Origin: Chrysomallon squamiferum | Lineage: Eukaryota > Animalia > Mollusca | DNA: 64,000 nucleotides | NCBI GenBank assembly: GCA_012295275.1 | Contig: CM022678.1 | Location: 11,408,001 to 11,472,000 of the forward strand | Direction of reading: 5' to 3' | Part shown: piece by piece, positions 1-55,966 of the stretch | How the letters are laid out: each line of letters opens with the position of its first letter | Position numbering within the stretch: the first letter of the stretch is position 1 | The notes under the pieces: model-generated | What the model saw: the letters and a program-made list of their open reading frames with translations, nothing else | Told to the model about the DNA's origin: nothing | The model's database searches: none | Position numbers and translations under genes: made by a program

Positions 1-1593
1 AAAAGTTTAAATATATATATGTATATATATATATATGTTCAGAAAGAAAAGAAAGAGCTACTTTGAAATTTTTATTTTTTGTTTTTAAACCTGTTGAAAC
101 ATTGATTGTGTTAAAAAAAATAAAAGTTTCCTGTTGGAAAAAACTGCTGCACTTCTCAGGTATGTCTGATTCGATGTTTTGTTCTTTCCACTTTTTGTTT
201 TCTTCTTGTCTTTAAACAAAGTTACTGACAGGTTAGTTCAGTTTTATTTGCTGCAGAAAGAAAAAAAATGGAAATCCAGGTTCACAAGTGATAATCATCT
301 GTCCATTGTCACTATGACAAATTTTCAAAACACATTACAAATGTTTGTTTCAATATTTCTATTTCTTTTAATTCTTTAAATTTTTAAATTTTGCAAATAA
401 TATTATATCTCCATTACAAATGTTTGTTCAATATTTCTATTTCTTTTAATTTTTATTTAATCTTTTATTTATTTTATACACAAAAATTTGCAAATAATAT
501 TATAATCTCCATTACAAATGTTTGTTCTATATATTTTTTTTCATTTTTATTTTTTATTTTTTTATTTAAATCAGAGAATATACAAGAGATAAATGATTTT
601 ATTCAGATGCTATCACTGCAGTTGTTGTATCGTTAATATCGTCAATTAATTCAAACATTAACTAAACGGGTTTTTGTTGGGCGTTGAGCAAAAACACATT
701 GTGCTTTGTGTGTCCGTCTGTCTGTGCAGTTAGACGCTTTGTGATGCAGATTCCGGAACGAACAAACAACATTTTCAATTAGGGACATTATTTCGAGGAA
801 AACAGTGCAGTGAAGGTAGCTGTTTTTATGAATAATAAATTGGGAAAATGAAGATGGAACTTAACGCAGCGATGAAGAAATGTTTTGTTGTTTCTGTGGG
901 GAAATCAGCGAGAACGGAAAACGGAATATTTGTTACAGACTCTCGTATGCATGGACGCATGGACGGATTGATAGGTGGATGGATGGATGGACAGTTGATT
1001 ATTTAATTTTATGTGCAGATTGTATACAGTCAGTTTGTCTGTGTGTGTGTTACTGAGCTTTAAAATACCCTGAACACACAGACACACACACAAAACATGC
1101 ACACTACAAACACCACACACACACACACACAACTAACATTATACACACACACACACACACACACACACAGAGACACACACACATACATATTCCAACCTGA
1201 TTTTAATATTACAATTATTATTTTTTTTCTCTAACACAGAACTGACAAGTTGTGATGTTAAATAATGCAGAGCCGCTAGGACAGTGGCTATCTGGACTGA
1301 CCACTAGTGGACATCTGTCTGGCTACAATTAATTTCCCTCAACAAAATCACTGAAGCTAAAACTAAATTTTCGTTAATGACCACTTTTTCTCCCTGTCGT
1401 ATTTTTTTTTTTTTTTCTCTCTGCTGCCTGAGTTGTAAAGTTTTATTGGTTTCTGGTTATGCAATAAATTTCCATTTCTGCTTTTTTCAATCAGTTGAGA
1501 GTGTATCATTGTGTCCAGCTGATAGGTAATGATAGGTCAGTCATCGGTTTTTAATATCAGTTTTCTTTTTTGTGTGCTTACTTAGCTAAACAC

Positions 1594-1598
1594 ATGCA

Positions 1599-1646
<48 letters not shown>

Positions 1647-1655
1647 GACACACAG

Positions 1656-1734
<79 letters not shown>

Positions 1735-1745
1735 TATATATACAC

Positions 1746-1777
<32 letters not shown>

Positions 1778-1800
1778 ACATACAGACACACACACATGGA
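1594..1800. repeat. (CA)n/(TA)n microsatellite
   Basis: Direct inspection. Confidence 0.9.
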
Positions 1801-2571
1801 TAAACACACGCATATCTCATATTTTTATTTTTACTGTTGTCACATTTCGTCGCATTATAAACTAATGTTATTTATGGTAGAGATAAGAGATCACTCACCA
1901 TACATAAATATGTATTAATCTCGTATGTAACAGAGAGTAAACATGATATTCAAATGAGGTAATTAAAAAGAATTATTTTTGTTCTAGCATGAAACCGATC
2001 ACATCTCATCTGTAGCAGATATCTGTGGCGAGCAAAAAATTAGAAAGAAAAATACTCTTTCTTCTTTTTCTTCCTTTCTCTCTCTCCTCCCTCCCTCCCT
2101 TCATCCCTCCCTCTCTCTATCTACCTGTCCATTTATGTACGAATGTATGTATGTATTTACAATTTAATTTTTCTCTCTAATTGTTTATCTGTTTATTATA
2201 CATAGTCCCCCCCCCCACACACACACACACACACACACTGACACATAAACAGACAGACAATATTACATCAGTTCCAACTGTTAATCCTTTTAAAACGAGA
2301 CAAAACAAAAAAAAAAGACTAGGAAGAAAGTAAAAAAATGTGTATAAATATATTTTTAAAAGTTATGATATGGTTTTGCAGTCATTTTTCTTGTCACAGA
2401 TAAAAACTCTGTCCAGCTGTTGCCACATTTCTGGTCAGTTTGTTAATGGTCGACATTAATATCACTGCCTCGATAAATCCTTTTTACAATTTCAATTAAA
2501 TTTGTTAATTACATATCTCCAGAGCATGTGTTCCCAGTCTCAGTGTTTGCAGGGTACTGTCTCAAGTGTTT

Positions 2572-2904
2572 GACACACACAGGACACACACACAGACACA
2601 CTACACATAAATAACATAAATAACACACACACTACACACACACATACACACAACACACACACACACACACAGACACACACAACATACATACACACAGACA
2701 CACACACAGATACAGACACACACAGACAAACACACGGACACACACAAACACACGGACACACACACTCACACACACACATACACATACACACAAACACGGA
2801 CATACAACACACACACAAACATACACACACAGATACACACACACTCAACACATGCACACCCATGCAAGCTCATACATATGTGTATGTGTGTGTATATCTA
2901 TCTG

Positions 2905-2984
<80 letters not shown>

Positions 2985-3021
2985 TACATACATACACACA
3001 CACACATATATATATATATAT
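2572..3021. repeat. Compound (CA)n, (TCTA)n, (TA)n microsatellite
   Basis: Direct inspection. Confidence 0.9.
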
Positions 3022-3479
3022 TAAAAATAAAAATAAAGTTTGCTTCATCAATTTTGAGTGCACTAAGGTTGTTTTTAGAGTACAGGTTTATTTGCAGGTA
3101 AATGCAGGTGATATGCATTACCTACATGTAACATACATCAGTGTGACAAATATATTAACACATGTTTGAAATGTCAGGTGAGGGGGGAGCAGTGAGATCT
3201 GAAAATAATTTTTAATCTTGTGTCTGTGTGTCTGTACTTTGTGGCTGGTGTTAAATGTTAGTTAATTGTGCGTCCAAACAGTTACTGTTACTGAGAAAAA
3301 AGTCTTCTGTGACTGCAGAAACATATATTTGTTATTCCATTACGTAAAAGAGAAGATATCAGCTGTTTTAATGGACTCTTGGAGTTCATTCCTTTTGTGT
3401 GTAATATATGTATTCTAAATAATCATTTGTTTGTTTGTATATATGTAATCATAAACATTTATCTATTCCTTTAATCTTT

Positions 3480-3850
3480 GGATGTTAATTTTTACATTTA
3501 TTTATTTATTTATATATGTAATTGTTACATTTATTTATTTATTTATGTATTCGATCTTTACATTTATTTATTTATTTATATATGTAATTTTTGCATTTGT
3601 TTATTTATTTATGTATTCGATCTTTACATTTATTTATTTATTTATATATGTAATTGTTACATTTATTTATTTATAGAATCTTTACATTTATTTATTCCTT
3701 TGTATATGTAATATTTACATTTATTTATTCCTTTATATATGTAATCTTAATGAACATTCATTTATTCATTTCTGTATATAATCTTTAAAATATTTATTTA
3801 CTTATTTATATATGTATCTAAAAACATTTATTTATTTATTCCCTTACAAA
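3480..3850. repeat. Degenerate ~33-bp AT-rich tandem repeat
   Basis: TTACATTTATTTATTTATTTATATATGTAA units. Confidence 0.7.
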
Positions 3851-3973
3851 CATATATTCATTCATTTACATATGTATTCATCCTAGCATGAATAACTATT
3901 TATGCTTATTTAAATAAATAAATAAATAAATAAATTTAAACGGTTTGTAAAATAAATAAATAATTTAAGTGAA

Positions 3974-4013
<40 letters not shown>

Positions 4014-4080
4014 TTTCTTCATCCCAAATAGTGCCTCACCTATTGTGCATAGATTGAATCAGCTGAGGTGTTCTTTCATG

Positions 4081-4115
<35 letters not shown>

Positions 4116-4837
4116 ACAGAAATCAATTTGCAATTGAGCACCACTTGACACTAATACTGATCTTATCTACACACAAATTTCATAGCCCTTGATTTGTGAA
4201 AAAATAAGTGTGACGTGAGACCTGTCAAATGTAATTTAATATGATTTCCCTTTTTGCTGTTCATTCATTTACTTATTTATTTGTGTGTTTATCTGTTTGA
4301 TTATTTTATTTATTTATTTATTTATTTACTTATTTTATTTATTTTGTTTATGTTTGTTTATTTGTTTATTTGTTTATTTATTTTGTTTATTTGTTTATCT
4401 GTTTATTTGTTTAAGAGTATTTAATGTTATTCAATAAGAAACAAAGAATTGAGAGAAAAAAGGAGAGATAAAGAGAAAAAAAACAACAGAGACCAAAGAG
4501 AAATTTAGAACATATTCAATTTATTAAAATAAATAAAAAATAAATAAATAAATAAATAAATAAACACATAAATATATAAATAAATAAATACATAAATAAA
4601 TACATAAATAAATAAATAAATACATAAATAAATAAACACATAAATAAATAAATAAATGAACGAAACGAATGAATGAATGAATAAGTAAATATTACTGTTG
4701 AAAAGCAGTTGATTTGTAAGAGAAATGTTTTTTGAACAGCTACATAAAACACTGACACGGTTTGAGAAGAATATTCTCTCATGTACGTACATCTCATAAC
4801 AGAGCTGCTTGACATTATTCACAGAAAAAATATAATA

Positions 4838-4840
<3 letters not shown>

Positions 4841-4925
<85 letters not shown>
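4841..4925. repeat. (GA)n microsatellite
   Basis: Direct inspection. Confidence 0.9.
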
Positions 4926-6711
4926 TAATAGAAATAGAAAAGGGTAAATGAGAGAGAAAGAAAGAGACTGAAATTTAAAAAAATATAGGAATGACAAATA
5001 ATAAAATATATATATATTAAGTATTAAAATGAGATACACAGGTAACAGGTAATGTAAGTGTACCTGCTGAACCATGACCCCCCCATGCACACTCCCCCCC
5101 TCTGTAAACTCTGATTCATTGTTTAACTCACAGAGACTTCTTTTGTTTGTTTCCTGTTTATAACTTTTCTGTTCCTTTATTTTCTTCTTTTCTTTATTTT
5201 TTTTTTTATTTTTATTATTTTTTTTTGTATATTAAATAAACAGATATTAAAATTTTAAATAAATAAATATATAAATAAATAAATAAATAAATAAATAAAA
5301 TTAAATAAATATGAAAATAATTAAATAAACATATAAATAAAGAATTAAAAGTAAGTAAATAAATAAATTAAATAAATAAATAAATATAAAAATAAATGAA
5401 TAAATAAGTAAACTAACAAATAAGTAAAATAAATAAATAAATAAAAATAAATAAATATTTGCTGTATTTTCATTTAAACTCAATGCTGAAAACTTTCAAA
5501 TTATTTTTACCTTTTTTAAAAATAAAACAATTCTTATATCTTCATTTTAATTAAACAAAAAATTGAAAAAAAAAAATTAATTAAAAAAAAGCAAAAGAAA
5601 ATATTCAATACATTATTACAGAAACATTAGAGTTTCTTATTAAAAAAAAAATATATATATAAATATTAAATTAAAACATAATCAAATAAAAGATGTTTGA
5701 TCAATTATACTGCTAAAAAAAAAAAAACAAACAAATAAAACAAATAAAAAAACAATAAAATATATTTGAGAAAAATCGTTATGTACATAAAAAAGAGAAG
5801 ATATTTAATACTTTTTTGTGGTGATTTGGTCTGGGTGGTGACAGCTGTCTCGCTAAATGATATAAACTTGTTTCCTTCGCACCTGTTCGCAGTCTCAGTT
5901 TGAATTTCCACTGGTTTATGTGTTTTATGGCTGCTTCACAAAGTGGACTGAGGGTGATGTAAGCTTAGGCGGGGCTGTTATCTCTGGGGTGATGTTTTTT
6001 ATTTCTGTCTGTGACGACAGGACTGTGGTGTAAGTACTAGAAGTTCAGTTTGCTTTTTTTTTTTTTTTTTTTTTTTATTTACTGATTTTTTTATTTATTT
6101 TTTTTTTTTATTATTAGAGATCATTTTATTTTTTAGTTTCGTTTTTTTAGAAATGGTTTTTATTGATTCTTATTGATTTTTTATTTTTCAGAGACATATT
6201 TTAAGGTAGAAATTTTTTTATTTTATTCAGAAAAATATTTTTATTTTTATTTTTATTTTCTGTTTTGTTTTTTAAAAATTTGAAACAAATTTATACATCT
6301 GTTTTGTTTTTCAAACTTTAAAAATAATTTTATTTAGATTTATTTATTTATATTTTTTTCAAATTATTTGGAGTTAACAAATGAAATTTGAGATATATTC
6401 AAATGAAAAAACACCAGAAAACTTTTGACTACTAAAAACATCTTCAGAACTTTTCTACTTGAATAGGAAAACTGAAAATATTTTTTAAAAGAAAAATGAA
6501 ATATTTTTTCTTTTGAACTGACCAATATTACCATTAATCTGTTCATTGGCTGTTTTCTCATAATTCAGATACTGACAATATTATTCCAAATAAAAATAAT
6601 AGAAATAATAATAATTATAATTATAATTATAGTTGTAGCTTTCACTTATTACCTAAACAACATTTTTTTTTTGTTCACAATTATTTTTCAAACTTAGAGC
6701 TTTAGAGTCAT

Positions 6712-30072: not shown

Positions 30073-31199
30073 GAGTGATGCCATCTCCCCTAAGGTTGCT
30101 GATGTTGTGGAGAAGGTGATGTCACAACAGCCACCACTACATCACGAGGAGAATCAGCACAACTATGGCAACGTCAACAACAGCAACAGCAACAACAGCA
30201 GCATCAACAACAACAACAACAACAACAGCAGCGGTGCTTACAGCCATCACATTTCATCCATCGCAGACAGTCTGCACGCAGTAGGCCAAACTAGGACGAC
30301 GTCTGCCAGCAACATCTTCCACAACAGCCTGCAGAAGTTCTACGAGGGCTACAGGGTGGCCAGCCAGGACGGCGACAGGTTCACGGCGCTCAACCGCTCC
30401 TTCTCCAACAGCTACAACCTCGCGAAGGAGCAGCTGCTGAGTCCCTCCCGCTACCACGGCTTCGCGTCCGAGCGCTTCAAACCCGACGTCGAGGCTCACG
30501 GGGTCGAAGGTCACGGGGTCGAAGGTCATGGGATCGAAGGTCACAGGATAGAAGGTCACAGGGGCGACGACAGCGGCGCTGAAGGACCCAGGGGCGAAGG
30601 TCGCGACACCGAGAGTCACAGGGGTGAAGGTCACGGCGTTGACCTGGAGGAGCGGTCGTTCGGCGGCAAGTCGGCGGAGGAGGACGAGGCGAAGCGGGAC
30701 TACGTGCACAGCATCCCCATCCCGTCGTTCTACGACAACTTCAAGCTGTCGAAGAGCGACGAGAACGTCAAGATCGCCAACATCTGCGACTACAACCGAA
30801 AGCAGGACGAGGAGTTCAGCAGGAGCCAGTCGATGCTCAACAGCTCCCTCAACGACTCCTACCGCTCCGACGACAACAGCAGCCCCGACTGCGCGCCCGG
30901 GTCCTCCGCTCACGCCCGCAGCCACTACGGCAACTCCCTGGAGCGCGCCTCGCAGGAGTTCAACCGGAGTTTCTCCTTCCACAGCTCCTCCGGCAGCAAC
31001 CAGCCCCTCAGCCCGTTCGAGGACCGGGGGGGCTACCCCAGCCGAAGATACTCCCTCCCGACGCCCCCCCTGTCAGAGTACTTCAGGTCTCCGGCGTCGT
31101 CAACGTCGCCCACGACATCGACTGTCGCGTTGCTGCACGCGAGTAACGTTCACCCGAACTCCGCGGGAATCTACTTCTGTCACCTGTGCAGTTACTCAG
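30073..31199 (+). CDS. hb: hunchback first identifiable exon (acceptor tttccAG at 30071-72; first in-frame ATG 30119)
   Basis: GC-rich ORF MSQQPP...[10 protein letters not shown] ending at the cag|GTGAG donor. Confidence 0.88.
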
Positions 31200-31611
31200 G
31201 TGAGCATTTGTTTGTTGTCTACAGACACACAGACTTACAGACACACACACACACACACAAATGTACACGCGTACATGTACACACATACACAGTTTAATCA
31301 CATATAAACACACACATATACACACACATTATGATAAAAAAAAAATACTTTCGATGATGGCAGTCGATAGAAATTAGTGGCAGCACAGTCTTTTAAGTTC
31401 ATTTGTAGGAGCAGACGATCTTTACAGCTGTAGGAAAGTGAGAGAAGCAAAAGTAAAAAAATGAAAGAAATGAAAGAGATAGAAAGAAAAAAGAAACAAT
31501 TACGCACAGCTTATTTACTACTTTGGTTTATATTGCTTGTAATTTATTGATTTCATTTATTTATTTATTTCTATATCTGTCTATTTTATTTATTTTGTAT
31601 TTGTTTATATA

Positions 31612-31694
<83 letters not shown>

Positions 31695-34600
31695 GTATAT
31701 ATCAATATATCTAAATACATATACACACATATTTATTTATTTATTTATTTGTTTGTTTGTTTGTTTGTTTATTTATGTATTTACTTACTTATTACAGGGA
31801 AATGTAAGGACATGTTTGATGAGCACATGAGCATTCACTTTGAGTACAGCTGTCCCCACTGTGACTACACGTCACGCACGGAGGGGCGACTCAAGCGACA
31901 CATCAAAGACTTCCACACCAACGAGGACCCCAACAACCCCAACAAGTCGCAGCGCACGATGCCGGGCAGACCCAAAGTGTACCGCTGTAAGCAGTGCGAC
32001 TTCTCCACCATCACCAAGGTGCGTAACACTGTAACACAATCACCAGTACGTAACACTGTAACACAATCACCAGTACGTAACACTGTAACACAATCACCAG
32101 TACGTAACACTGTAACTGTAACTCTGTAACACTGTAACACAATCACCAGTACGTAACACTGTAACACAATCACCAGTACGTAACACTGTAACACAATCAC
32201 CAGTACGTAACACTGAAATTTGTAACTCTGTAATTCACCTCACACAATCACCAGTACGTAACACTCTCAAAACAATTACATTTTACGTAAAAAAAAATAA
32301 TAATAAACATTTAACAGAATCAAAAGTCGTTTGGGGTAACTTTAAACTGTAATCTGTAAGAGAATGAGGTTTTATGTTTTATATAGTATGCTGTAAGGTG
32401 TAAATCAATGTTATAATTTGTTGTTTTTTATATTATGTCATAAAACATTATAATTCACCTGTCAGCATTAGGAAATGATTTTTTTTTAAAACCCCAATAA
32501 AATAATAAAATTGAGAACTTAAAAGTTGTTTGGGGTGTTTTATAGGTGATTGCAGAGAATGAGTGTTTATGTTTTAGTAGTATGCTGTAATGTGTAATCT
32601 GTTATAATTTGTTGTTTTACATTATGTCATAAAATATTATACTGTGTCATATTAGGATATGTTTTTGTTATAATAAGCAATTTTTATGTTACATTTATAT
32701 CTTATATAATGTTATGTTTTACATTTAAATCACAAATTACATCATTACGTTATATATGTTGGGTTAAATTAACTTTATTACATAGTATTTTACATTATAT
32801 TATGATATTTTACATTGTATTACATTATGTTATATTGTGTTGTGTTATGTTATGTTAAGTTACTTTATGTTATGTTATGTAAAGTTAAGTTATGTTAAGT
32901 TGTGTTATGTTATGTTATTTTATGTTAGTTAAGCTATGTTAAGTTATGTTATTTATGTTATTTTATGTTGTGTTACTTTATGTTAAGTTATGTTATTTTA
33001 TGTTATTTATGTTATGTTACGTTGTGTTTTGCAGGTTGATTTCTGGCAGCACGCGAGGTCGCACATCAAGGAGGAGAAGCTGCTGCAGTGTCCACGTTGT
33101 CCCTTCGTCACCGAGTACAAGCACCACCTCGAGTATCACCTGCGCAACCACTTCGGCTCGAAGCCGTTCAAGTGCAACAAGTGCAACTACTCATGCGTGA
33201 ACAAGTCGATGCTGAACAGCCACATGAAGTCGCACACGAACGTCTACCAGTACCGCTGCGCCGACTGCACGTACGCGACAAAGTACTGCCACAGCCTCAA
33301 GCTGCACCTGCGCAAGTACAGCCACAAGCCGGCCGCCATCCTCAACAACGACGGCAGCCTGCCGCACGGGCTCGACATAGAGAGCGCCGGACTCTCCCTC
33401 CTCGCCAAGCGCGGCCCTCCCCGGGGCCCCAGGGGGCCGAGGAAGGACAAGAACGACCACTTCGCGCACCTGGGGCCGATGTTCAACTTCCCCATGACGT
33501 CGATGCCGGGGATGAATCCAGGGATGAATCCAGGGATGAATCCGGGGATGAATCCGGGGATGAACGGAGGTCTCATGTCCCCTTACTGGCCGCTGGTCAA
33601 TCCCATTCCCAACGGGATCCACCCTCCTCCCCCGCCCCTGATTCCGGCCAGCAAGATGGGGGGGCCGATGGTTCCAGCGTCGTTGATGACGTCGCCGAGC
33701 AGCAAGATGAACATGATGAAGTCGGCGGACGATGCTGCTGCTGCTGCTGCTGCTGCTGGGAGTAGCGCTGCTGGTGCTGGTTTGTTGAGGTGCAATCTCT
33801 GCACGTTCACGTGTGACAACGGCGACGTCATGAATGGCCACGTGGTCAAAGTGCACGCGCACGCTGAGAACCAGGATCTCTTCAGCATGTTCGGGATTTC
33901 CTCGGAGGCGCTGTTAGACGAGCACGCGAGCAAATCCAGGCAGAACCAGATGTCCAAGCAGTGGCTGTTGCCGGGCAACCACCCCCCCTCCTCCTCCTCC
34001 TCGTCGTCGGCGGGGGGGAACAAGGGAGTCCTGCGAGTCGAGACGGAGTCGCAGCTGCAGCAGCAGCACGACGCCACTAAATCCAGTCCCCACTCCTGGC
34101 CGAGAAACGGAGGTCACGACCTGGGAGGTCAGAGGTTGCCGCCGTACTCGGCCAACTCGCACAGTCTTCCCGAGCTCTTCAACGGCGACGTCGTGGAGCC
34201 GGCCACTCAGGCGGAACGCGACAGCAGCACCGACATTCTGAAGCAGATGACGCTGAAGTTTGGAGGAAGCATGTCGCGACAGCATCCACCACAGCAGCGC
34301 AAAGAGACTCCTCTCGACCTGACGAAGCCGAAATCAGTGTCTCCCGAAATTCCATCACCACCACCACAACAACAACAACAACAACAACAGCAACATCAGC
34401 AGCAACAGCAACAACAGCAGCAGTCCCTGTCAGCAGCACAGCCGATGATGATGATGCCGTCGTACATGAAGCGGCCGATGTCTGATGATGACCAGCGGCC
34501 GGCGGACAGCGCGGGGAATGACGTTGCTGAGGCGAGTCCGAGGAAGAGGTCGAGGAAGGGGAAGGCGTACAAGCTGGACACGTTGTGCCTGAAGCTGCAG

Positions 34601-35674
34601 GAGAAGCAGACCACGTCTCCTTACCAGAGTGACAGCGAGGAGTCCACAGGAGCCCTTTCCTGTGACGTACGAGAAGACGAGGATGAGGAGGAGGAAGGAG
34701 AAGAACAGATGATGACTAACAACAACAACAACAACAACGATCACAACGATAACAATAATAACGATGATGATGATGGTGTCGCTGATTGCCAGAGACCTCG
34801 TTCTGCGGGAGAGAACGACGCGGTTCATCGTGACGATGTTGACAGCGCTGCAGCTGTCAATGGAGTCAGTGAGAGACTGTGTGACAACAACATCGAGGAC
34901 GTGGTTAAGAGCGAGCAGGAGAGCAACCTGAAAGCCGACTTGGAGCAGATCCACAACAACATCCACTTCCTCAACAGCCAGCTGCACCGCGGCGCCGAGG
35001 ACTTCACCGTGGACAAAAGCGAGCCGGAGACTCACAACAACAACGACGACGTCAACGATGATAAACTCTCGTCAGAAAAAGACGCTCACAACGACTACGG
35101 CGCCGACCCCGCGGCCGACCTCGCTCAGTCGGTGTTCACGAACAGACGCAAGCCGATGACGCCCGCGTTGCGTCGCGGGACGGAGCTGGCGTGGAAGATC
35201 CTCAACGACCCCGCCAACCCCGTCAGTGGCAACAGCCTGCTGGGGCCGGGCAACCCCACCCAGACTAGCGAGATCGTCCTTGAGACTCCACCCTCCCACA
35301 ACAACAACAGCAACAGCAACAACAACAACAACAACAGCAGCAGCAACAACAGCAGCAGCAACAACGTCGTCAACGGCCCTGCCCAGCCTCACTCAAACGG
35401 GCTGCAGCACAGCGGCCACCTACCACATCTACCGCAACTACCGCATCTACCGCATCTGCCAAACGGAATGAACCAGATGAAATCGAAGGGCTTCCCCGGG
35501 CTCGAACACTACGAGTGCCCCTACTGCGACATCGCCTTCCGCAACTGCGTCATGTACACCATGCACATGGGTTACCACGGTTACCAGGACCCGTACAAGT
35601 GCAACATGTGCGGGCACTGTGCGAAGGACAAGGTTGACTTCTTCCTGCACATTGCACGGGCCGCTCACAACTGA
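30119..35674 (+). CDS. hb: Hunchback C2H2 zinc-finger transcription factor (spliced CDS 30119-31199, 31798-32018, 33035-35674; ~1313 aa)
   Basis: Diagnostic hunchback middle fingers ([72 protein letters not shown]) and C-terminal pair ([37 protein letters not shown]). GT-AG introns 31200-31797 (phase 1) and 32019-33034 (phase 0) keep the frame. The start at ATG 30119 is inferred; the frame is open back to the acceptor at 30072, so an upstream coding exon is possible. Confidence 0.96.
31798..32018 (+). CDS. hb: hunchback coding exon 2 (end of NF1, NF2, start of MF1)
   Basis: ttacAG|GG AAA TGT...; encodes [39 protein letters not shown]...[13 protein letters not shown]; donor aag|GTGCGT. Confidence 0.93.
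32019..32265 (+). repeat. 27-bp minisatellite at the start of hb intron 2
   Basis: Unit GTACGTAACACTGTAACACAATCACCA, about 7-8 copies with two interruptions. Confidence 0.92.
32815..33022. repeat. (GTTAT)n pentanucleotide array directly upstream of the hb exon 3 acceptor
   Basis: Direct inspection. Confidence 0.85.
33035..35674 (+). CDS. hb: hunchback coding exon 3 (MF1-4, extra finger, C-terminal fingers)
   Basis: ttgcAG|GTT GAT TTC TGG...; open to TGA at 35672-35674. Confidence 0.96.
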
Positions 35675-35829
35675 GCAGGTTTTTCTAGTTTTTGTTATAA
35701 ATTATAAACATTTTTTCAGTTGTGGAGACTACAGTATTATGTATAAAAAAAAGGAAGAAGAAGAAAAAGAAAACAGAGAAAAAGTCTGATCTCTGTTGAA
35801 TCTGAATCCAAGCAAGAAAGATAACTCAG

Positions 35830-37305
35830 CTCAGGGTGCCACGTTATATAAAAAAAAAAAAACAGTAGAGTGGTCTCCCTTCCTTTGTTTTGTCCCCCCC
35901 CCAGCCTCCATTTCATTCTTGTGAATATTTCATGGATGTTTTTTTTTTTTTTTTTTTTTTTTTTTTTCACTTTTGAAAAATTAAGAGCTGTAAGACACGG
36001 AAATGAGTGCAAAGAAAACTAAATCTAATACAAACTTGTATTGGCAGAAGACAGACGGTTGCCATTTTGTTTTTTTATTATTGCTGCACACAACTACCTC
36101 AGATTTTTAAAGTTTTTGTTTGTTTTTCGGTGTTTAAACATTACATCGGATGTTTCTAGTCCTTCGTGAAAGTCATGCTTCATTGAATTTCTGGCAGTGA
36201 AATGCGGAAAAAAAAAAGCAGCCATAATTGTTGATTTTGTTAAAAAAAAATAATAATGATGATGATGATAATTCTGATTCAGTTTGTTGAATGATGAGAA
36301 ACAGGATTATTTAATTATCATTGCCTAGGAAAGATGTTTTATCTTTTTTGTCTGCACGTAAATGTTTGTTTATTACTGTAAAATAAAACACAACAAAGAA
36401 CAAAGAGGTGCTATTTAGGTTCATGTAATTGAAAAAAAAAATAATAATAATAAAAACACATTTAAAGGGACTTTAACATAATTTTTATAAATTTGTAATC
36501 AGTAAATATTCACCAAATGGTGGCCGAAAAACATATTTAAAATCTTCTGACTTGCAAATAAATAGCAGAAGATTCTCGCAGAGTCCCTTTAAATGATGAA
36601 TTCATTTAATGTTTTCAAAAATCATTTTTATACAGCTGTCTATTACTTCTGTTCACTGTGTAAAAGAAAATTAACAGGTCAAGTAATGTATAGTGCTGTG
36701 ACATTTTGCAAAAATATAGTGCCCTAATATTACTACGCAAAATGGCAGTGCTTTGGTTTAAACTGAATTATTATTTTTTAAAGTAGCAAGTCTTTTTGAT
36801 TGTTATGATTTAGAATTGTAAATTAATGTATAAAAGTAGTATTTAATTAACTGTAGCAAAATTTCAAGTAGATGTCCTCCCCCCCTTTTTTTTTTAAAAT
36901 TTTTATTAGAATTATTTATTTGTGTGATTTGCGTTTTAAGATGAAATGTTTTATTAATTGTTTAAAAATACACTTATGTTTTGTTTTTTTAATTTTATTT
37001 TTATGAAAAACAAATACAAAAAGAATGTTTTTAAATTTTACTCTTTTTTTTTTTAAACTTGTTTATAAAGCAAATGTTTTGTAATTATAAATGTACTGAT
37101 TGGGATAACTGTTGCAAGAGAGATAACTCCTTCATAATCATTTTCTCTAAAATTAGATACATTTCATGTCTGTTTGTGCATTTAATCCAAAAAAATGCTG
37201 ATAAAATTTATTTAATTTTATTCAGAAACAAAAACTACCTTTAACATCATAATAGAATAATTATTTTTTTGTTGTTTTTAATATTATTATTGCAATTTAT
37301 TTATT

Positions 37306-37350
<45 letters not shown>

Positions 37351-37703
37351 CTGTTTAATAATATATATATATATAATAAATTATTCACTGTATAAATAAC
37401 TAATTCGTATTTTCAAATTATTTATTTTTTATGAAGATGTAATTTTTCCATGTTATCAGTGTCATGTGCATAATCGGTGATTTTTAATGCACAGAAATTA
37501 AGATGTTTACCTCCATTCCACCCGCAATTCCGCATTAGACTCTTCTATGCTGTTTATTTGGGTCGTCTTATTATGGTTTCTAGGGGTGAGCATGTAGCAT
37601 GAGTATGCTTATAACAATATTATTAGTTTTAGGTGCTGTTTCACCTATTTTTATTCTGTTTCTGTTTTTAGTATAAAGGCTTTAATTAATGTTTAAGTGG
37701 TTA

Positions 37704-37734
<31 letters not shown>

Positions 37735-40473
37735 TTAAACTCAGGGGACACAGATTGGCTTTTCTCAATCTTCTGCTCATTTGTTGCCACGGTAACTGTT
37801 ACCAAGCAACGTACAGTGTTATTTCCTCACTGTTGTAATATATTATTATTATTATTATTATTATTATGTATGATCTTCTGAAACACTGTTTCATTGGCTG
37901 TATGTTAAATGTTACCTGATTGGTTATGTTCTGAATTTAACATTTCCCAGTGTGCTTCATTCTAAATGTCTACCTCTTTCTTCTCATTTTTTTTACCTTT
38001 GTAAACAGATTAAATGGTTACTTTTTTCATTGTTCGAATCTGTTCTCATATTTTTTTTATCTTTTTTTTTCTATTAATTCAATATTTTTTCTTTTAACAA
38101 TTGTAAAAATTTAATTTGTGAATTCAGTGATTTTGTGATTTATGTTTACAAACTCCATGTACACTATAAGTAATAAATATAAATAAATGAATAAATATAA
38201 AATCATAACTGTATTAATTTATACATATAAACAGTTATTACCTTATAACAATTGTAGGTTATTTGCAGATAACATTTTTCATTTTTTTAGAATTTGTATT
38301 ACTTCTTTGTCAATATTTAAAAGTAAAAAAAAAACAAAAAACGTCAGTTACTATTTATTATTTATTTATTTAAATTAAAACATTTTAAAGCTGTTTCCCA
38401 GAATCTAACTTTAAAGCGATTTTGTAATTTTATTTATTTATTTAAATACAAAGCTAGTGCTGCCAAACAAAGCTGAAATTTTTAAATATCTGAAAACAAA
38501 CTTAATTTCGAAGTGCTTGTTTCGTTAGAGTTAAAGCCCCTGATTTCTGTTGGCCCATTCAAGTTTAACAGTTACAGCACCCAAGTGGAACGTTGCATTA
38601 GAATTACTGCCCCTTATTCCTGTTGAACACAGCTGGTCTTTAGAGTTACTCCCCTTTTAGTGTTATAGATTTGTTCTGTTTTGTTTCGTTAGTCACTCTA
38701 GTCTGAACTGTACAGTAACTTTCAGAAGAATAAATTAAGATGCAATATTTGTGTATATTTATTTAAATTAATTTATGATTTTCAGATTTTATACAGTAAT
38801 TATTTTTTCATTCTAGTTAGAAACAAACAAGATATTACAGAAGTTGAGTATTAGATCTGTGATGGTTTGTGATTGGCTGAAAATACATTTTACAGATGTG
38901 GTCAGCCCAGTGATTGGTCAGTTCCAAAACTCCCCTCCCCAATTTGAATGAAACTGATTCCACATGTAAGAAGCTTTCTCATTGGTTCTTTACAAGACAA
39001 TGATCCAATGGTTAATGATAGCTTGTTATTGCAGATGTAAAAATCTGTGTGATTGGTCCTTTCTGAAACTCTGTAATTGGTACAAGGGACATTTGTTGTT
39101 GCTTATTGAAAACAGGACAACATTTCAGCTTTTAGAACCCAGGTTAATGATCATTTTCATTTTCTTATTTCGTAACATAATGTTTTAATAATTTGTGAAC
39201 TGTTTAAGTTACTAAGAATACTAATTTTTTAATAAAAATCTGTGATGCTGTTAATGATCTAGTTTTAATGTTAATCTCAGGGAAGGTGTCAGGTTTTTGT
39301 TTTTAAGATGTTCACACCCAAACCCATTTGATACAATAACATATCAGAAAAATAAATCACAAAATGTTTTAACATTTCACTAACGGAACAAAAGAGTCCA
39401 TTAACTTCCAGTTGTTTGTTTACTTGTTCATTCACTTTTTAAATAAACTAAATTTATCTGTTTTATATTCCTGACTGAAAAAAAAAAAAATGAAAATTGA
39501 TATTCATCTTAATTTTTATTTACTTATCTTTGCTTTTACAATGTTTTTACAGCAGACGTCAGTTTTTTTGTTTTTTTTTAAATTTTAAAATTTTTCATAT
39601 TAATGATGAAAAATCCATTATGGGAAGAAAACGTTTAATAATAATATTACTTTCTTGAGCTTGGAACTTGAGGCAACTAGAAAACTGATCAATCATTTAC
39701 AAATCAGCCATTAAGAATTTTTTCTTCTTCTTCTTCTTTACAATAATTTGTCTGCAGTTGGATAAAGTTCAAAGTAAACTCAGGGTGCAAAGGGTTAACT
39801 GAAAAACAAATCAAGGACGAACAGTTAAAGATTCACGATCAGTGTTTAAGTAAAAACAGTTTTAACAATTAACAAAGCCTCTTTAATTGTTCATTCTTGA
39901 TTTGTAGCAACTTCATTTTTGTCTCTTGATTATGTTCCTTTAATTGTTCACTACAATTTTTAATTTTTGTCTGTGATTACATTCAGCTGATTGTTAATTA
40001 TTAATTTTTATTATTTTATTTTTAATTTTTTTTTAAATGACTATGTCCCTTTAATTGTTAATTACTATTTTCCATTGTTTTTTTCTGATTGTGTCCCTTT
40101 AATTACTCAGTATTGTTACTTTTTTTTTTTTTTTTTACTGATCATTCCCATTGACCTGTTTATTTTTAATACTAAATACATTAATTTAATTATGTGTTAT
40201 GTTTCTTTAAGTGATAATTTTCACATTAAATATTCCAACATTTCAAAGTTGGCCACGCCCACTCATTAATATTAAAAAGTTGAGAGTGATGAGCACCTGT
40301 CAGAGTGATTGATTAGCTGTGGGAGTGAAAGGTGGTGTCACACATGTATTATTTTGTTTATATACACTCCTATACTTTGTTAAATCAGTATTCAAATTAT
40401 GTATTCAAAGCCATTTTGTGTCATCAAATATTAACTGTGAACAAATGTTTCTTGATAGGAACCGAGTTTGTGC

Positions 40474-40543
<70 letters not shown>

Positions 40544-40714
40544 ATTATTATTATTTATATTATTATTATTATTTTTTTTTTTTTTTTATTATTTATTATT
40601 ACTTTTTTATTTTTTTTACTATTAATGTTGAAAAGGAAGAAGAAATGAAAATTGTTAAAATTGTTACAATTCTTGAAAAAAAACAAATTTTGAAGAATTT
40701 TGTTTAATCAGGGA
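35830..40714 (+). promoter_or_regulatory. Cluster of miR-125/lin-4 and let-7 seed-match sites in the putative hb 3'UTR
   Basis: CTCAGGG at 35830, 37740, 39779; CTCAGGGA at 39276; TCAGGGA at 40708; CTACCTCA at 36094; CTACCTC at 37970. Confidence 0.65.
36459..36595. mobile_element. Small inverted-repeat element (possible Kolobok-type MITE, or an RNA hairpin)
   Basis: Perfect 14-bp inverted repeat CATTTAAAGGGACT (36459-72) / AGTCCCTTTAAATG (36582-95), i.e. TTAA|AGGGAC..GTCCCT|TTAA. Confidence 0.5.
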
Positions 40715-41327
40715 TAAAAGTAGAATACCGGTACGTAACAGAAATCCATTTTTTCTGCAAGCATTCCACAAACAAGACTCTTATATTTATATTTATTTAG
40801 TTTTCATTTCTAAAATTCACTTCACAGTATTATAATACAGTTATGTCTAAAAAAAAGATTTTTGTTTATTTGTGAATAGTATATTTATAAATATTTTTCT
40901 TTAATTTCAAAACTCATCTTTTTCTTAAACTTGTATTAAATTTTTAATAATTGCATTCAGTTTAAGTAATTAAAAGATAATTAATTATATTTAATTTAGT
41001 TTGTAAATTTTATTTATTTTGTTTTGTTGTTTATTTTTATTATTTTATTTAACCTAAGGAAATTTACAATTTAATTATCTCAAGACATAAATTCCAGTTT
41101 TCACATCATTCCATTTTTCATTTTTCTTAAATTAATTTTTAACTTTTAATCAATTCCCCCCCCCCTGTGATTGAGTAGAAACCGGTGATTTAATTTCTAT
41201 TACAATCAATTATTTACTAATCCGACTGAATTTATAGCACAATTATTAAATGAGTTATTTAAATCATGTTATGAAATAATCTGTTTAAACTGGTCTAATT
41301 AAATTATTAAACAATCTATTTAAATTA

Positions 41328-41529
41328 CAGTGGACCCTCAGTTGATTACTTTTACAAATGAATTTATTATTTAAAATCTCGTTTACTTTAATAGATTTTT
41401 GTTTTGTTTTCAAATGTGGTGAATAATTGCACACCTCAGTGACATTATGGTTAAAGTATCACCAGTAGACTGCGAGGTACTGGGTTCAAGTCCTGCTGAT
41501 AGAAACATACGTTAATTGAGGTTCCACTG
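41328..41529. mobile_element. Tc1/mariner-pogo (Tigger-like) MITE with TA flanks
   Basis: TA|CAGTGGACCCTCAGTT ... AATTGAGGTTCCACTG|TA; imperfect terminal inverted repeats with CAGT termini. Confidence 0.65.
41433..41500 (+). mobile_element. tRNA-derived SINE head fragment (pol III A/B boxes)
   Basis: A-box-like TGACATTATGG (41440) and B box GGTTCAAGTCC (41483) at tRNA-like spacing; no intact cloverleaf. Confidence 0.5.
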
Positions 41530-41668
41530 TATAAATGTTTTTATTTCATGTTAATTTAATAATGTAATCTTTAATTTTAAATAATTAAATGATTTTTGTT
41601 CAGAAAAGAAATAAGATTGTCCAGTTTAAAAGATTTAAATTTGGGGAATAACAAAGCATTTGATACAA

Positions 41669-41699
<31 letters not shown>

Positions 41700-43177
41700 A
41701 ATAACACTAAAAAACTGTTCAGTAAAAGAATAAGTAGGTAAATTATGTAGATTATGCAGTTTATTAAATAATATTTGTTTAGTTTTACTAATTTCTGTAT
41801 CCCAAAGATTAACAGTCTTCCTGTCTCAAATGTTTGGTAAAAATGTGTTTGTCTGTGTGTGTGTGTGTGTGGTGTGTGTTCTGGAATACATGCTTTGGTG
41901 TTTGTCTCATAAGAATACTGTGCACAGTGATGAATGTGTTGGCAAATAAATGTGTTTCATTCCATTTTTAAATATTTTACTTTTTAATATAGTGGTTTGT
42001 TTTTCATTTGAAATGAAACTGCACACAGATTGTTTGTTTATATTCATCGAAAGTTCCAAAAAAAGTTCATAATGTATAAACATTTATACTATTTAAAAAT
42101 CCATGCTTTTTATATATTTTAAAATCTTGTTTTATATTTGAATGTTTGTGATGATTATTTTTTTTTTTATATACTTTAAATATCTTCTTCCATTATTTCA
42201 TTTATTTATTTATTTATTTTATTTATTTATTTTTTTTTTTCAAACATTTGTTTTGCTGCTGATCTCACAGAAATTATTTCACTCGTCATGGCAACATGTT
42301 GCTATGGAAACAGTTTTAGTTAATATTTGATGACACAAAATGGCTACCTGATCTCATTGTTGATTTAAAATGAAACTGTTTGATTGATGCATGATTTAAA
42401 CACAAATAATAATATATAAACTTATATATATAATGTAACTACTCTCATATACATATATATTTTCTTTCTTTGAATGTTCTGTAAAAAAAAAAAAAAATGT
42501 TATAAAAAAAATAATCATGATTTTTATTTAATTAGCCTTTATATCATTTGTGATTCAATTACTCCTTCTGTGGAGACTATTTGTACCTTCTTTAGTTGTT
42601 TTATTTTTTTTTAATGTAAATTATCTCCCTTGTAGGCAATATGTCTGCCATGATTACTTTGGCTCAGTCACATTTTTCTCCAGTGTAATTTTTTTGTTTT
42701 GTTTGTATCAATAAAGTCTTGTATATTGTCAAAAGTTTTAGTTCTTATTTTACAGTTTTTGTTATCAGCTGTTTCTTATTTCTCAACTCTTTGAACTAAA
42801 TTCTTTAAAACAAAATTGGAAACTAGGCACACACATTCTCAGAGTTTCTGAACTCTGAACAACATTTTTAAATTGAAAAAAAACAAAAAAAAAGGAAATC
42901 GAACACTGAACTAGATAACTTTGACTAGATAACAAGTGAACAGAAAAAAAAATTAGGAAATCAGTCTTTCAAGTGACAAGTACCTCTGGCCAAACTAACA
43001 TCATCCATCTACTGGGTTGCTATGGGTAACACTGAATGAGTAGACACCAATACAAAACTAATGAAAATAAACTAAATCGGTGAAGGTGATAGAGAAAGGT
43101 TTTATGAAAATACACAACCAGTAACAATGTCAAACAACAAAAAATTAAAATATTTATTTTACAACATCACAACAATT

Positions 43178-43335
43178 TCAACCACCTTCTCCATCATCAT
43201 CATCGTCTTTGCTCTCATTCTTATCATCATCATTGCTCTCATCATCATCATCATCATCATCAACTTTATCGTCACCAGTGAGGTTATCAAACGCCATGTC
43301 CTCTTCATCATCTGCTCTGTCTGTTTCCTGGTTTG
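43178..43335 (-). CDS. MRTO4: MRTO4 exon 8 (acidic tail, stop)
   Basis: Phase-compatible acceptor cttAG; [13 protein letters not shown]...DDDDDGEGG*. Confidence 0.8.
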
Positions 43336-44304
43336 CTAAGAAATTAAAACACATTTTTATTATTTTTAAAAACAAATAAATAAAAAATAAAAGTGGTATT
43401 AACTTAGTATGAATGAAATATAAAAATTAAACTTAAATTTTTTTTTAAATGAACTGTAACAAGGCTGTTAGGGAGTTTGTGTAAATGATATTAACAACAA
43501 TAATAATAAAATGAAATGAAATGGAACTAGATAAATAAATAAATAAATAAATAAATCAATTACTGAATTGAAATTTATCAGAATGTCAGAATATTTAAAT
43601 ATTAACAAATATTTAGTATCAATTAAGTCAGTTTAAATCTGTTCCACAACTGATATTAATAAACTGTTTGGGATTTTTAAAATACACTAATTAGTAACAT
43701 TAAATAAATAAACAAACAAATAAGTAAATAACTAAATAGTTTTAAATAAAAGAGATAAAATATTAAATAAATAATAAAATATACAAATGAAGAAATAAAT
43801 AAATATTAATAAAATAAAATAATTTCAATTATAAAAATTATGTATGTATGTATGTATGTATGTATATATATAATAAATAAACAAATAAATCAGTAAGTAT
43901 TAAATAAATAAATAAAAAAGCATTAAATAAGTAACAGAACAAAACATGAGAAAACAAATAATTAAATAAACGAATAAATAAAAGTCCTGTTCACCTTTCA
44001 CTCTGACTTTTGTTGGCACAATGGGTTCTGGTCGTTCAGAGAAAACTTTCCATTTTCCATCATTACTCCAAACTCCTTCTATAGTGACGTGAAACTCCGC
44101 CATTTTGTGTCCAAACAATTTCTAAAAATAGAATTGTAAACTAATAATAATAATACAAACAAAAATATGATTAACAATAATATTATTATTACTACTACTA
44201 CTACTACTACTACTACTAATAATAATAATAATAATCATAATAATACAAACAAAAATATGATTAACAATAATATTACTACTACTACTACTAATAATAATAA
44301 TAAT

Positions 44305-44350
<46 letters not shown>

Positions 44351-44411
44351 AAACAAAAATATGATTAACAATAATATTACAACTACTACTACTACTACTA
44401 ATAATAATAAA

Positions 44412-44452
<41 letters not shown>

Positions 44453-45324
44453 AAACAAAAATATGATTAACAATAATAATAACAATAATAATAATAATAC
44501 AAATAAAAGTACTAAGGATGTCGATGATGATAAGAAAAATGATAATAAGCATGATGACAGTGATGATGATTATTATGATGATAATAATAAAAAGAATGAT
44601 GATTTTGATAGTAATAATAACAGACTGTGAAAATAATGATGATGATGATGATGATGAAAATAAAAGTAAAAAAATTAATATTAATAATAATAACTGTATT
44701 GTAAAAGTAGATGCAATGTCCTGATGGTAAAATTCAAATACATTTTTTTTTTTTTTTAGAGATTATCAAAGCAGACATGACTTTCCTGTTCCAATTCATC
44801 ATTGGATTATTTAGTTAATTTAATATTTATTCAAAATGAACAACCTCCATTAATTTTCATCTGTTCATAATTTCCTCCATTTTGTTTTGCATTTATTCAA
44901 AATAAGCTTAAAAGCTCATACAACTATGGATTTAGACAAAATGAATTTAAAAATGTTTAATGAATAAACAGTTCAAAATTAAAGCTATAAAATATAATTG
45001 TCAATTAATTCTTGGTCAAATAAAAACTATGCTACTGTGCAAAATACAAAATTTATTTTGAACTGTTATTTTTTACATTAAAATAAAGTTTAAAAATAAG
45101 TTATATTTTTTATTGAAATTGAGGTAGATTTGTGTAAAATTGTGTAAAATAAAAAATGTACCAGGACTCTTGCTTGTTCCGGTGTTAAAACTTCGCCAAC
45201 GTCACACACCTTGTGTTCTTTCAACAGCGTAACAACACCTGCAACACAGAAACATGTTAAATATTTATTTTGATTTGTCTTTCTTTTTAACATGGCTGAT
45301 CCCATTATTTATACCTTTATTGAT

Positions 45325-45363
<39 letters not shown>

Positions 45364-48300
45364 TTTAAAAAAAATTAAACTAGATAGTCTGCCAAATGAG
45401 TTTAAAATATTGATTTTAACAAACTGAAATATTAATTAATTAACTTACAAAAAAATCTCTAGTTTTATATCAGTCTCCTTCATAAAATCTTCTAATTTGT
45501 ACTATTTAAAGTAATTTGTCTTTGAAAATTATTTAATCAACTTTTCAAAAACAAATATTATAAAATAAAAAAATAAATAAAAAAATGAGACAAATTTTTA
45601 AAATTAGAACCATAAATCATTTAAAAATTAGAACCTTCAAGTTATCTTTTTTAATTTATATCTAGAGTTACCTCTCTTTAAACTTGTGGGCAGTCCTAGC
45701 TGTCTCAGCTGGGGTTCCATGGAGTGGGAGAAATCTGGGAGTGGTCCCTCATCTAGGATAACTGTCTGGGTTGCAACTGTTCCGGATCGGGCAAAATCTG
45801 GTACTCTTAGGTCATCAAAGTATCTGAAATAATGATACACGAAGATGAGGCTGCCATTTAACAAAATAATTTTGTTACAAGATCAAAACTTCTGGGTGTT
45901 TTACAGTTTAAGCCACAACTACAGAGTGCTGCTGCTGTTGTTGTTGTTGCAATCATCTACACAATAATAGCAACAGTGATTTAACTAGACAAGAAGTGAG
46001 CAGACCACACAAGACACACTAACAACGTCTTTGAGTCTCACAAAACCCCAGCCTCACTTTAACTCACTGAACCCTGTTCCCTGAGTTTTAAGTAGCATGA
46101 ATTATGTGTTAGGAAAGGGAGCTTACTCTGTTGTTTATTTGTCTTTTTCCCTTCCATTATTTTATACATTTCACTGAGTTTATAAAACATTTTAACTTTC
46201 TTCAATTGAAACATGAGCAGGAGTTTTATTGATGGTAAATAAATAAAAAGTCGACAATTATTTTCTTTCTCTAGATTTGTTTTGATGTTTTCTGTGAAAA
46301 ATAGTAAAGATTTTCTTCTGTATGTTTTGTAATGTACTGGAGGAAGCAAAAAAAAAAAAAAACAGCTAATAACTTATTGTTTTGATTTTTTTGCTGTTTT
46401 ATTAATCACAACTTTAAATTGTGTGGATGATAAAACAAAAAAATAAAAATAAAAAAATAAAAATAAAAAAAAAATAAATAAAAACAAAAAAAAAAAACCA
46501 TTCCATTACTTAAGACTGAAAATAAAAATATGTTTCCAAAATATATCATTTGGCACAAGAGTAAATTGTGGATAAAAAATCTGGCCAGTTTTGGCACACA
46601 CACACTTAAAAATGTTACCCACCCATGATTTAGACAATGTTTTCTTTTACCTATTTACAAAAATATTAAAAAAATACAGAGTTAGTTCAGTATGTATATA
46701 TGTCACAAAAGATAGTTTTTTGTTTTTAAGAAAAAAGTAAAATGAAATCTGACTGTTAAAGGGAGATAAACCTACTTTAAAACTTTCTTTTCTGTCTCAT
46801 TTGTGAAGAGCAGACCAGTTTGACCTTTGAGCTGAGAGGTCAGCTTGGAAAGGTTTTCTCTGAATTCGTCATCTTCTGATTTACCAAGAGCCAAACGCAT
46901 AACTCGATTTTTTCCAAAGAAAAACCTGAAAAGAAATAAAAAATTTTAAAAAATTAAAACTGCAATTAAAAATAGTAAAATCAATTTAACAAAAGAATTT
47001 AAATTTAAATTTCAGCTTGCACCCTCTAAATTAAGTCTAATAACAATACAAGAAAGAAACCTGCAGGTCTACTCTTATCAGTTAGCAATAATGTATTTTT
47101 AACATTGAACCTTCCCACTGAAAGGAAAACACATATCATAATCTTTGATATACACTGACAGGGAGTGGTTGGAATTTGAAATAGATGATGGTTGGAATTT
47201 GACAGGAAACTGGTTGGAATTTGAAAATGAATACTGGAATTTTGAACACTGGTTGGAATTTGAAATAGATGATGAAGACAGAATACTGGAATTTTGATAT
47301 ACACTGACAGGAGTACTGGTTGGAATTTGAAATAAATGATGAAGAACACAGACTACTGGAATTTTGATACACACTGACAGGAGTACTGGTTGGAATTTGA
47401 AATAGATGATGAAGAACACAGAATACTGTAATTTTGATACACACTGACAGGAGTACTGGTTGGAATTTGAAATAAATGATGAAGAACACAGAATACTGGA
47501 ATTTTGATGCACACTGACAGGAGTACTGGTTGGAATTTGAAACAGATGAGGAAGAACACTTTTCTCACCTGCTGTGTCTCCACTCCTGTCTGACTTCTTT
47601 CAGCTGAACATTCCTCATGTTCTGAACTGAAAACGTGAAAATCCTTGCATACTTGTCAACACTGTTGTGAATCTGAAAACAATAATAATAAAAATATATA
47701 TATTTTTTACACATTATATATCAATACTATCATGTGTTATGTTCAAATCATAAATTACTTTTTCAAATTAAACTGAAGAAAAATGTCAGATATTCTCCCT
47801 GTAGCTTGTGTACATGTGTGTGTCTGTGAGCATTTGTATGTATGCATGTATGTGTGTGTATATGTCTATGCATTTCTGTGTATATATATATATATGTCTG
47901 TGCATGTATGTATGTATGTATGTATGTATGTATATGTCTGTATGCATGTGTACATCAGTGTACATACATATATACTTACCTATATATTCATATATATGTA
48001 TATCTGTAAGTATGTGTTTATATGCAAGTATGTGTTTATATGCATGTATGTGTTTATATGCATGTGTGTGCGTGCATGTGTGTGTGTCAAACATGAAAAG
48101 AAGAAAACAGTCAGGAACTGTGGTGTGCTGTTTTATAAGATTATAACACAACCGAACTTCAAACAGAAAAACAAGAGAACTTCATCTGAGGTTAGCTCTA
48201 CAAACGAATTTCCATACCTCTTCAACCAGTTTCTGCTTCAGTTCCAAACCTTTCTTTTTCGTCTGTGTCAGAGAAACTGAAATATAAAAGTAATTTGCTA

Positions 48301-50085: not shown

Positions 50086-55966
<5,881 letters not shown>

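Follow-up and report, generated by a model that had tools for sequence, protein, structure and literature searches.

We analysed a stretch of 64,000 nucleotides from the snail Chrysomallon squamiferum (contig CM022678.1 of assembly GCA_012295275.1, forward-strand positions 11,408,001 to 11,472,000; hereafter the window, numbered from its first letter). It carries a hunchback gene followed, on the sense strand, by five seed matches to the microRNA miR-125/lin-4 and by matches to let-7 (Table 1). The three hunchback exons that were delineated together give an open frame of 1313 amino acids, and the gene is intact. A splice acceptor lies just upstream of the exon at 30119, so more 5′ exons are likely. 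The predicted protein groups with named Hunchback proteins and has the features by which the orthologue is recognised, namely the central C2H2 finger block, the RKG motif and two C-terminal fingers. Over 130 amino acids of the central fingers it is 98% identical to the nearest named protein, from the vent snail Gigantopelta aegis, the two proteins not being identical, and FastTree places it as sister to the latter with a support of 0.99. Protein identity, tree and open frame thus agree with the initial annotation of this DNA, which had recognised a spiralian (lophotrochozoan-type) hunchback. The second hunchback intron opens, right at its donor, with a 29-bp tandem repeat (32021-32265).

The five miR-125 matches were found at exactly the positions claimed for them in that annotation and span 0.16-5.0 kb past the hunchback stop. 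Matches were sorted into the canonical seed classes (8mer, 7mer), and the Biomphalaria sequences are consistent with assigning them to miR-125 and let-7. The minus strand between 35675 and 40800 holds no miR-125 match of 7mer class or better. Elsewhere on the plus strand CTCAGGG occurs only twice, as had been noted, at 51095 (7mer-m8) and at 61547 (8mer; previously given as ~61546); a further plus-strand match outside the region, a 7mer-A1 at 63222, had gone unmentioned. Over the whole window the minus strand carries miR-125 matches at 46078 (8mer) and 11952 (7mer-A1). The three let-7 matches of Table 1 were also absent from the initial annotation. The hunchback 3′ region contains no miR-100 site, and the seeds of a few other microRNA families have one match there or none. 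Exact matches to the Nanos response element and the Pumilio element were likewise missing between 35675 and 43000 (degenerate forms were left unsearched), and an Rfam scan of the window gave no match; no miR-125 or let-7 locus was seen there.

The excess of miR-125 sites 3′ of the snail hunchback is real and strand-specific. As the annotation had proposed, we compared the region with dinucleotide-shuffled sequence: none of 2000 shuffles reached five sites for any of the segments 35675-40800, 35675-42000 and 35675-43000 (means 0.07, 0.08 and 0.10). The empirical background is about three times higher than these means: the 122,874 bases left in the window (both strands) hold five sites, which gives 0.25 expected (P 7e-6). 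Against the same empirical background, the natural bounds from the stop to the neighbouring gene (35675-43170) give 0.37 expected (P 4e-5), and the RNA-covered part alone, with four miR-125 sites, gives P 1e-4. Of the 913 heptamers with two or more occurrences in the region, CTCAGGG ranked 8-11 under six Markov models. With the region-trained models of order 1 and order 2 it ranked 9 and 8, respectively, and was the best heptamer apart from simple repeats.

TGATTGG stood just ahead of CTCAGGG under three of the other four models. This heptamer, which we take to be CCAAT/Y-box-like, occurs five times on the plus strand between 37097 and 39056 (at 37097, 37917, 38870, 38911 and 39050), three times as GTGATTGG, and is strand-biased across the window (11 on plus, 2 on minus). 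It could mark an enhancer or an RNA element.

Two other origins of the miR-125 matches were considered and rejected. Local alignments of 128 nt around the sites, seed included, score 10-15; the five contexts are unrelated and hence do not form a repeat family. CTCAGGG resembles half of an AP-2/COE site. All five matches run one way, with the palindromic other half missing, which speaks against DNA-binding sites of this kind.

Table 1. Coordinates of hunchback, of the microRNA seed matches and of the adjoining gene in the window
Feature	Position	Strand	Remarks
hunchback coding exon	30119..31200	+	begins at ATG matching the Gigantopelta start; tblastn and splice dinucleotides
hunchback coding exon, N-terminal zinc fingers	31799..32018	+	end joined to 33035 in an RNA contig (X2, loose end)
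final coding exon of hunchback, with the central and C-terminal zinc fingers	33035..35674	+	stop TGA 35672-35674
candidate long 3′ untranslated region (3′UTR), 26% GC	35675..39910	+	RNA contig cover in pieces
miR-125/lin-4 site 1, 7mer-m8 CTCAGGG	35830..35836	+	shares an RNA contig (X2 record 12) with the stop codon
let-7 8mer	36094..36101	+	predicted extra pairing, -18.1 kcal/mol; RNA cover X1 record 4, X3 record 21
let-7 6mer	37508	+	seed match
miR-125 site 2, 7mer-m8 CTCAGGG	37740..37746	+	abuts a TA repeat (just 3′ of it); no RNA among the pieces listed, nearest end 37696
let-7 7mer-m8	37970..37976	+	predicted accessibility high (97th percentile); no RNA among the pieces listed
miR-125 site 3, 8mer CTCAGGGA	39276..39283	+	predicted to pair nt 1-9; RNA bridge X1 record 7, X2 record 16
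miR-125 site 4, 7mer-m8 CTCAGGG	39779..39785	+	RNA bridge X1 record 8, X3 record 23
miR-125 site 5, 7mer-A1 TCAGGGA, weakest	40708..40714	+	bin depth 0, 0 and 3.1 in three RNA runs; no piece among those listed
uL10/Mrt4-type convergent neighbour, last coding exon	43178..43336	-	bounds the hunchback 3′ region

This stretch is present in five public runs, namely four RNA runs from a single study and one, X5, whose kind is unrecorded. To follow the transcript beyond the stop, contigs from three of those RNA runs (X1, X2 and X3) and from X5 were placed on 33000-41000. At the acceptor, an X2 contig opens with letters from the exon before and hence represents spliced RNA; X5 reads into the intron and is DNA-like. 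Near or after the stop, the pieces listed cover 35477-35900, 35981-36750, 37388-37696, 38383-39490 and 39480-39910. The first (X2 record 12) spans the stop codon together with site 1, the let-7 8mer lies under records at 35981-36566, site 3 is bridged by records 38383-39430 and 38669-39411, and site 4 by records 39598-39910 and 39480-39815. RNA contigs thus extend to 39,910 and take in the let-7 8mer together with three of the miR-125 sites. Contig depth is 3-8 downstream versus 2-7 in the coding exon, and none of the 22 substitutions listed downstream of the stop falls within a seed. Cover is patchy and falls off after 39,940; the gaps at 37.0-37.3 and 38.1-38.3 kb and the low cover past 39,940 are uninformative, these being contigs in which repeats are skipped. 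The annotation had named a transcript end before ~36.4 kb as fatal to its proposal; such an end is unlikely because RNA contigs reach 39,910. The hunchback 3′UTR is likely at least 4.2 kb long and may extend to a poly(A) signal such as the AATAAA at 41945 or 42710; site 5 may lie past the main 3′ end. Eleven AATAAA hexamers occur between 36382 and 39442.

Duplexes were predicted with the Biomphalaria miR-125, the first 18 nt of which are the same in a clam; the microRNA of the window animal may differ. Predicted energies are -13 to -16 kcal/mol, mostly from the seed, and the flanks of the sites are 65-80% AU. The supplementary 3′ pairing at 39276 that the annotation had suggested for nt 13-16 is weak with the molluscan microRNA: it needs a C at miR-125 nt 16, and because this base is U the predicted duplex comprises nt 1-9 only.

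We then asked what lies downstream of other hunchback genes. A search of metagenomes with the C-terminal fingers yielded 47 loci, of which L001-L025 are hunchback-like. The 21 weak matches (L027-L047), the divergent L026, and L012 and L013 (11 and 79 nt downstream) were dropped, and removal of the duplicates L005, L015, L019, L022 and L023 left 18 loci. Removal of the near relatives L014, L018 and L016 as well left 15 non-redundant loci, the window being excluded. By tree and motifs, L002 was placed as a heterodont bivalve, L001 and L007 as annelids, L016/L024 as divergent annelid-like, L005/L006 and L008 as probably spiralian (L008 by likeness to L006 only), L004 as panarthropod-like and the rest as mandibulate; the FastTree position of L006/L008, with few columns, is unreliable. 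In the bivalve, 6.6 kb of downstream sequence holds a miR-125 8mer at +2131 and a let-7 8mer at +2969. For L005/L006, 1.1 kb contains three sites for let-7 and one for miR-125. About 356-366 nt past the stop, a single 11-nt word holds a let-7 8mer overlapped by a miR-125 7mer-m8, so that the two microRNAs would compete for one site. One miR-125 and one let-7 site lie in the 227 nt available for L004, a miR-125 8mer in the 645 nt of the annelid L007, and one let-7 7mer-A1 downstream of L008. Neither kind of site was found downstream of L001, L016 or L024. A further observation concerns L004, where positions 1-6154 upstream of the stop, mostly a 1361-codon frame, hold two miR-125 and three let-7 sites in sense and none in antisense; this may reflect either coding-region targeting or a composition that weakens L004 as UTR evidence.

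Over 3 kb downstream in the 18 loci, let-7 has nine sites in 6 of the 18 loci versus 2.05 expected (P 0.0005; antisense 4). Counts over 1.5 kb are 3 versus 0.79 for miR-125 and 6 versus 1.31 for let-7, and over 7 kb let-7 has 11 versus 3.24. The 15 loci were also ranked ungrouped at 3 kb: CTCAGGG is found in four loci (rank 9 of 16,384) and CTACCTC in four (rank 13), and both microRNA families occur together in 3 of the 15 versus 0.17 expected (P 4e-4). Scored as m8-or-A1 families, let-7 ranks 64, and at 7 kb the family ranks are 470 for miR-125 and 260 for let-7. Among the seven loci that are not mandibulate, grouped only once the data had been inspected, words of the let-7 type and of miR-125 hold ranks 1, 2, 4 and 9 (antisense 392 and 9796). 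Three of the six spiralian loci carry a miR-125 site (rank 4); in the spiralian loci there are 3 sense sites in 11.1 kb downstream versus 1 in 31 kb upstream. The five-fold array was seen only in this snail; most other loci are short. Comparison of the window 3′ region with the other loci by blastn gave low-complexity matches only. Since these regions cannot be aligned, what recurs is the candidate target relation rather than any demonstrably homologous site.

Three side observations were made in these loci. A miR-125 6mer is kept at the same place, 370-412 nt past the stop, in the insect-like L014, L015, L017, L018 and L019 (85-93% identity). The mandibulate L025 has four let-7 7mer-class sites 1.4-4.1 kb past the stop (0.42 expected), in a downstream region of 54% GC that may be another gene. 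CAAAGAT/AAAGATC ranks beside the two timing seeds in the spiralian loci (5 of 6).

Our preferred reading, in which we place moderate confidence, is that miR-125 and let-7, co-transcribed and switched on late, repress hunchback through a long 3′UTR bearing the five and two matches. The cluster of miR-100, let-7 and miR-125 would come on late in development and its microRNAs would bind the 3′UTR and damp hunchback; the pairing of target and microRNA would be old, while individual sites turn over. The timing of these microRNAs in related animals is compatible with such a scheme. In a study of the gastropod Rapana venosa, miR-125 rises from 5.46 transcripts per million (TPM) in the competent larva to 132.68 TPM after metamorphosis (~24-fold), and miR-100 from 23 to 3974 TPM between competent larva and post-larva (PMC5714496). 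Other sources describe the cluster as probably one transcription unit (PMC2956262) and let-7 as expressed late in molluscs and annelids (PMC9092520). Because the same matches lie 3′ of hunchback in a clam, a worm and other invertebrates, a microRNA brake on this gene is likely to be far older than nematodes. More tentatively, the repression may be an ancestral protostome circuit, kept in nematodes, in a panarthropod-like lineage and, among spiralians, in molluscs, annelids and others, with miR-125 regulation largely lost in mandibulates, and turning the early-identity factor off at larval settlement and metamorphosis in spiralians. Such an ancestral timer had been proposed in the initial annotation; the recurrence of both seeds 3′ of other hunchback genes speaks for it, and the small number of mostly short loci and the mandibulates temper it.

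Several results weigh against the reading of hunchback as a miR-125/let-7 target. In the window, the miR-125 sites are of ordinary predicted accessibility (19th-58th percentile), and the let-7 matches taken alone are weak (42 of 2000 shuffles, P 0.02-0.055). The RNA support consists of contigs, all from a single study, with no silent stretch as a control; they carry no strand, the farthest reach of any contig from the coding exon is 35900, and sites 2 and 5, like the second let-7 site, have no cover among the pieces listed. In the 18 loci, miR-125 has 4 sites at 3 kb versus 1.42 expected, a borderline excess (P 0.054; antisense 3), and at 7 kb 4 versus 2.54 (P 0.25), an excess that is not significant. 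As an m8-or-A1 family in the 15 loci miR-125 ranks 88 of 16,384. At each of the other loci at most one miR-125 site lies downstream, three of the six spiralian loci lack one, namely L001 (400 nt), L008 (3.7 kb) and L024 (3.0 kb), and none of the eight mandibulate loci has a miR-125 match of 7mer class or better.

The sites may be genuine targets of miR-125 and let-7 that limit hunchback to certain tissues or buffer its level in juveniles or adults, for example in neurons or gut, with no role in developmental timing. We regard this as unlikely, but it deserves some weight: low-depth hunchback RNA is present in libraries whose stage is unrecorded, snail haemolymph and clam haemocytes are rich in miR-125, and no evidence in the analysis measures time. 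On the other side, what stands out across loci is a pair of co-occurring seeds that belong to the two classic timing microRNAs. A gastropod shows stage-dependent regulation of the cluster, and hbl-1, the Caenorhabditis elegans orthologue, provides a precedent.

A chance cluster, thrown up by scanning many windows and seeds, with matches at the other loci that are due to chance as well and aided by post hoc grouping, appears improbable. The region was indeed picked around the sites, three more plus-strand matches lie within 51-64 kb, the miR-125 excess at other loci fades at 7 kb, and the ranks 4 and 1, 2 and 9 come from the post hoc group. However, the probability obtained with natural bounds and the empirical background stays at 4e-5, the pairing of hunchback with lin-4 and let-7 was a prior hypothesis, and the ungrouped 15-locus test still ranks the seeds 9 and 13 (joint P 4e-4).

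We give very little credence to the view that the distal sites lie outside the hunchback mRNA (in library DNA, a long tail of the convergent neighbour or another transcript), the motif being a DNA-binding site or without role and only site 1 and the let-7 8mer counting: the end of coding-exon contigs at 35900, the lack of strand, the eleven AATAAA hexamers and the AP-2/COE likeness would fit it, whereas contigs begin at the acceptor with exon letters where the DNA-like X5 enters the intron, cover drops after 39,940, toward the neighbour, and all five matches share one direction without a palindromic other half.

The convergent neighbour (43178-47625, minus strand) has the Pfam domains Ribosomal_L10 and RL10P_insert and an acidic tail; we take it to be Mrt4 within the uL10 type. 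A ~60-bp tandem array lies at about 47140-47560, within its span. Beyond it, a 14-3-3 gene occupies 50086-53700 on the plus strand, and its first coding intron holds the miR-125 match at 51095. Farther downstream than this gene lie the 8mer at 61547 and the 7mer-A1 at 63222.

Late repression of hunchback by miR-125 and let-7, our preferred reading, bears on how far the C. elegans heterochronic pathway extends outside nematodes, an old open question: the microRNAs are conserved, and few of the targets are known to be. The signature behind hunchback of a snail, a clam, an annelid and others names a concrete target and concrete sites open to mutation or assay in tractable spiralians (oyster, limpet, Platynereis, Capitella), and a candidate switch for larval settlement and metamorphosis. 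If the ancestral circuit were true, hunchback would join the very small set of microRNA-target pairs shared between phyla, and the heterochronic timer of nematodes would, in its core, be a protostome-wide device. Our search of the open literature brought up no paper on a mollusc or annelid that connects hunchback with miR-125 or let-7; such predictions may exist in target databases, large supplements or papers behind subscription. The word 'hunchback' is absent from the text and three supplements of the Rapana venosa study (PMC5714496), and from four supplementary files of an octopus microRNA paper, for which larger tables may exist.

Known systems resemble the snail case to different degrees. 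In vertebrates, conserved miR-125 sites are described in Ikzf3 and Ikzf5, Ikaros itself being apparently unregulated by these microRNAs (PMC3760135). The likeness is that of miR-125 sites in the Ikaros family, the usual comparison partner of hunchback, and homology of the sites is putative. In other systems lin-4/miR-125 and let-7 act on lin-14, lin-28/Lin-28b and Prtg, and Drosophila let-7-C acts on abrupt and chinmo. There, too, one early-fate regulator is hit jointly by both microRNAs, but the target genes are others and were established by experiment. Closer to the present gene, Lin and Abrahante, each in 2003, reportedly described hbl-1 repression and pointed to possible sites for let-7 and lin-4/miR-125 in the 3′UTR of Drosophila hb. 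The idea of microRNA control of hunchback beyond nematodes has thus already been voiced; the miR-125 signal found here differs in lying in spiralians and one unplaced panarthropod-like locus, and in 0 of 8 mandibulate loci.

The closest parallel is hbl-1, repressed through its 3′UTR by miR-48/84/241 and let-7 and carrying lin-4 sites (PMC1043860, 10.1101/2020.11.10.377101, PMC3310729). In the nematode, hbl-1 has four strong let-7-family sites, whereas in the snail miR-125 sites outnumber let-7 sites 5 to 2. The snail is a spiralian, and its putative sites spread over 5 kb with no alignable sequence. Both systems nevertheless present an orthologous gene with several 3′-region seed sites for the same two microRNA families, and, as far as sequence can tell, the candidate snail circuit would work like the nematode hbl-1 node.

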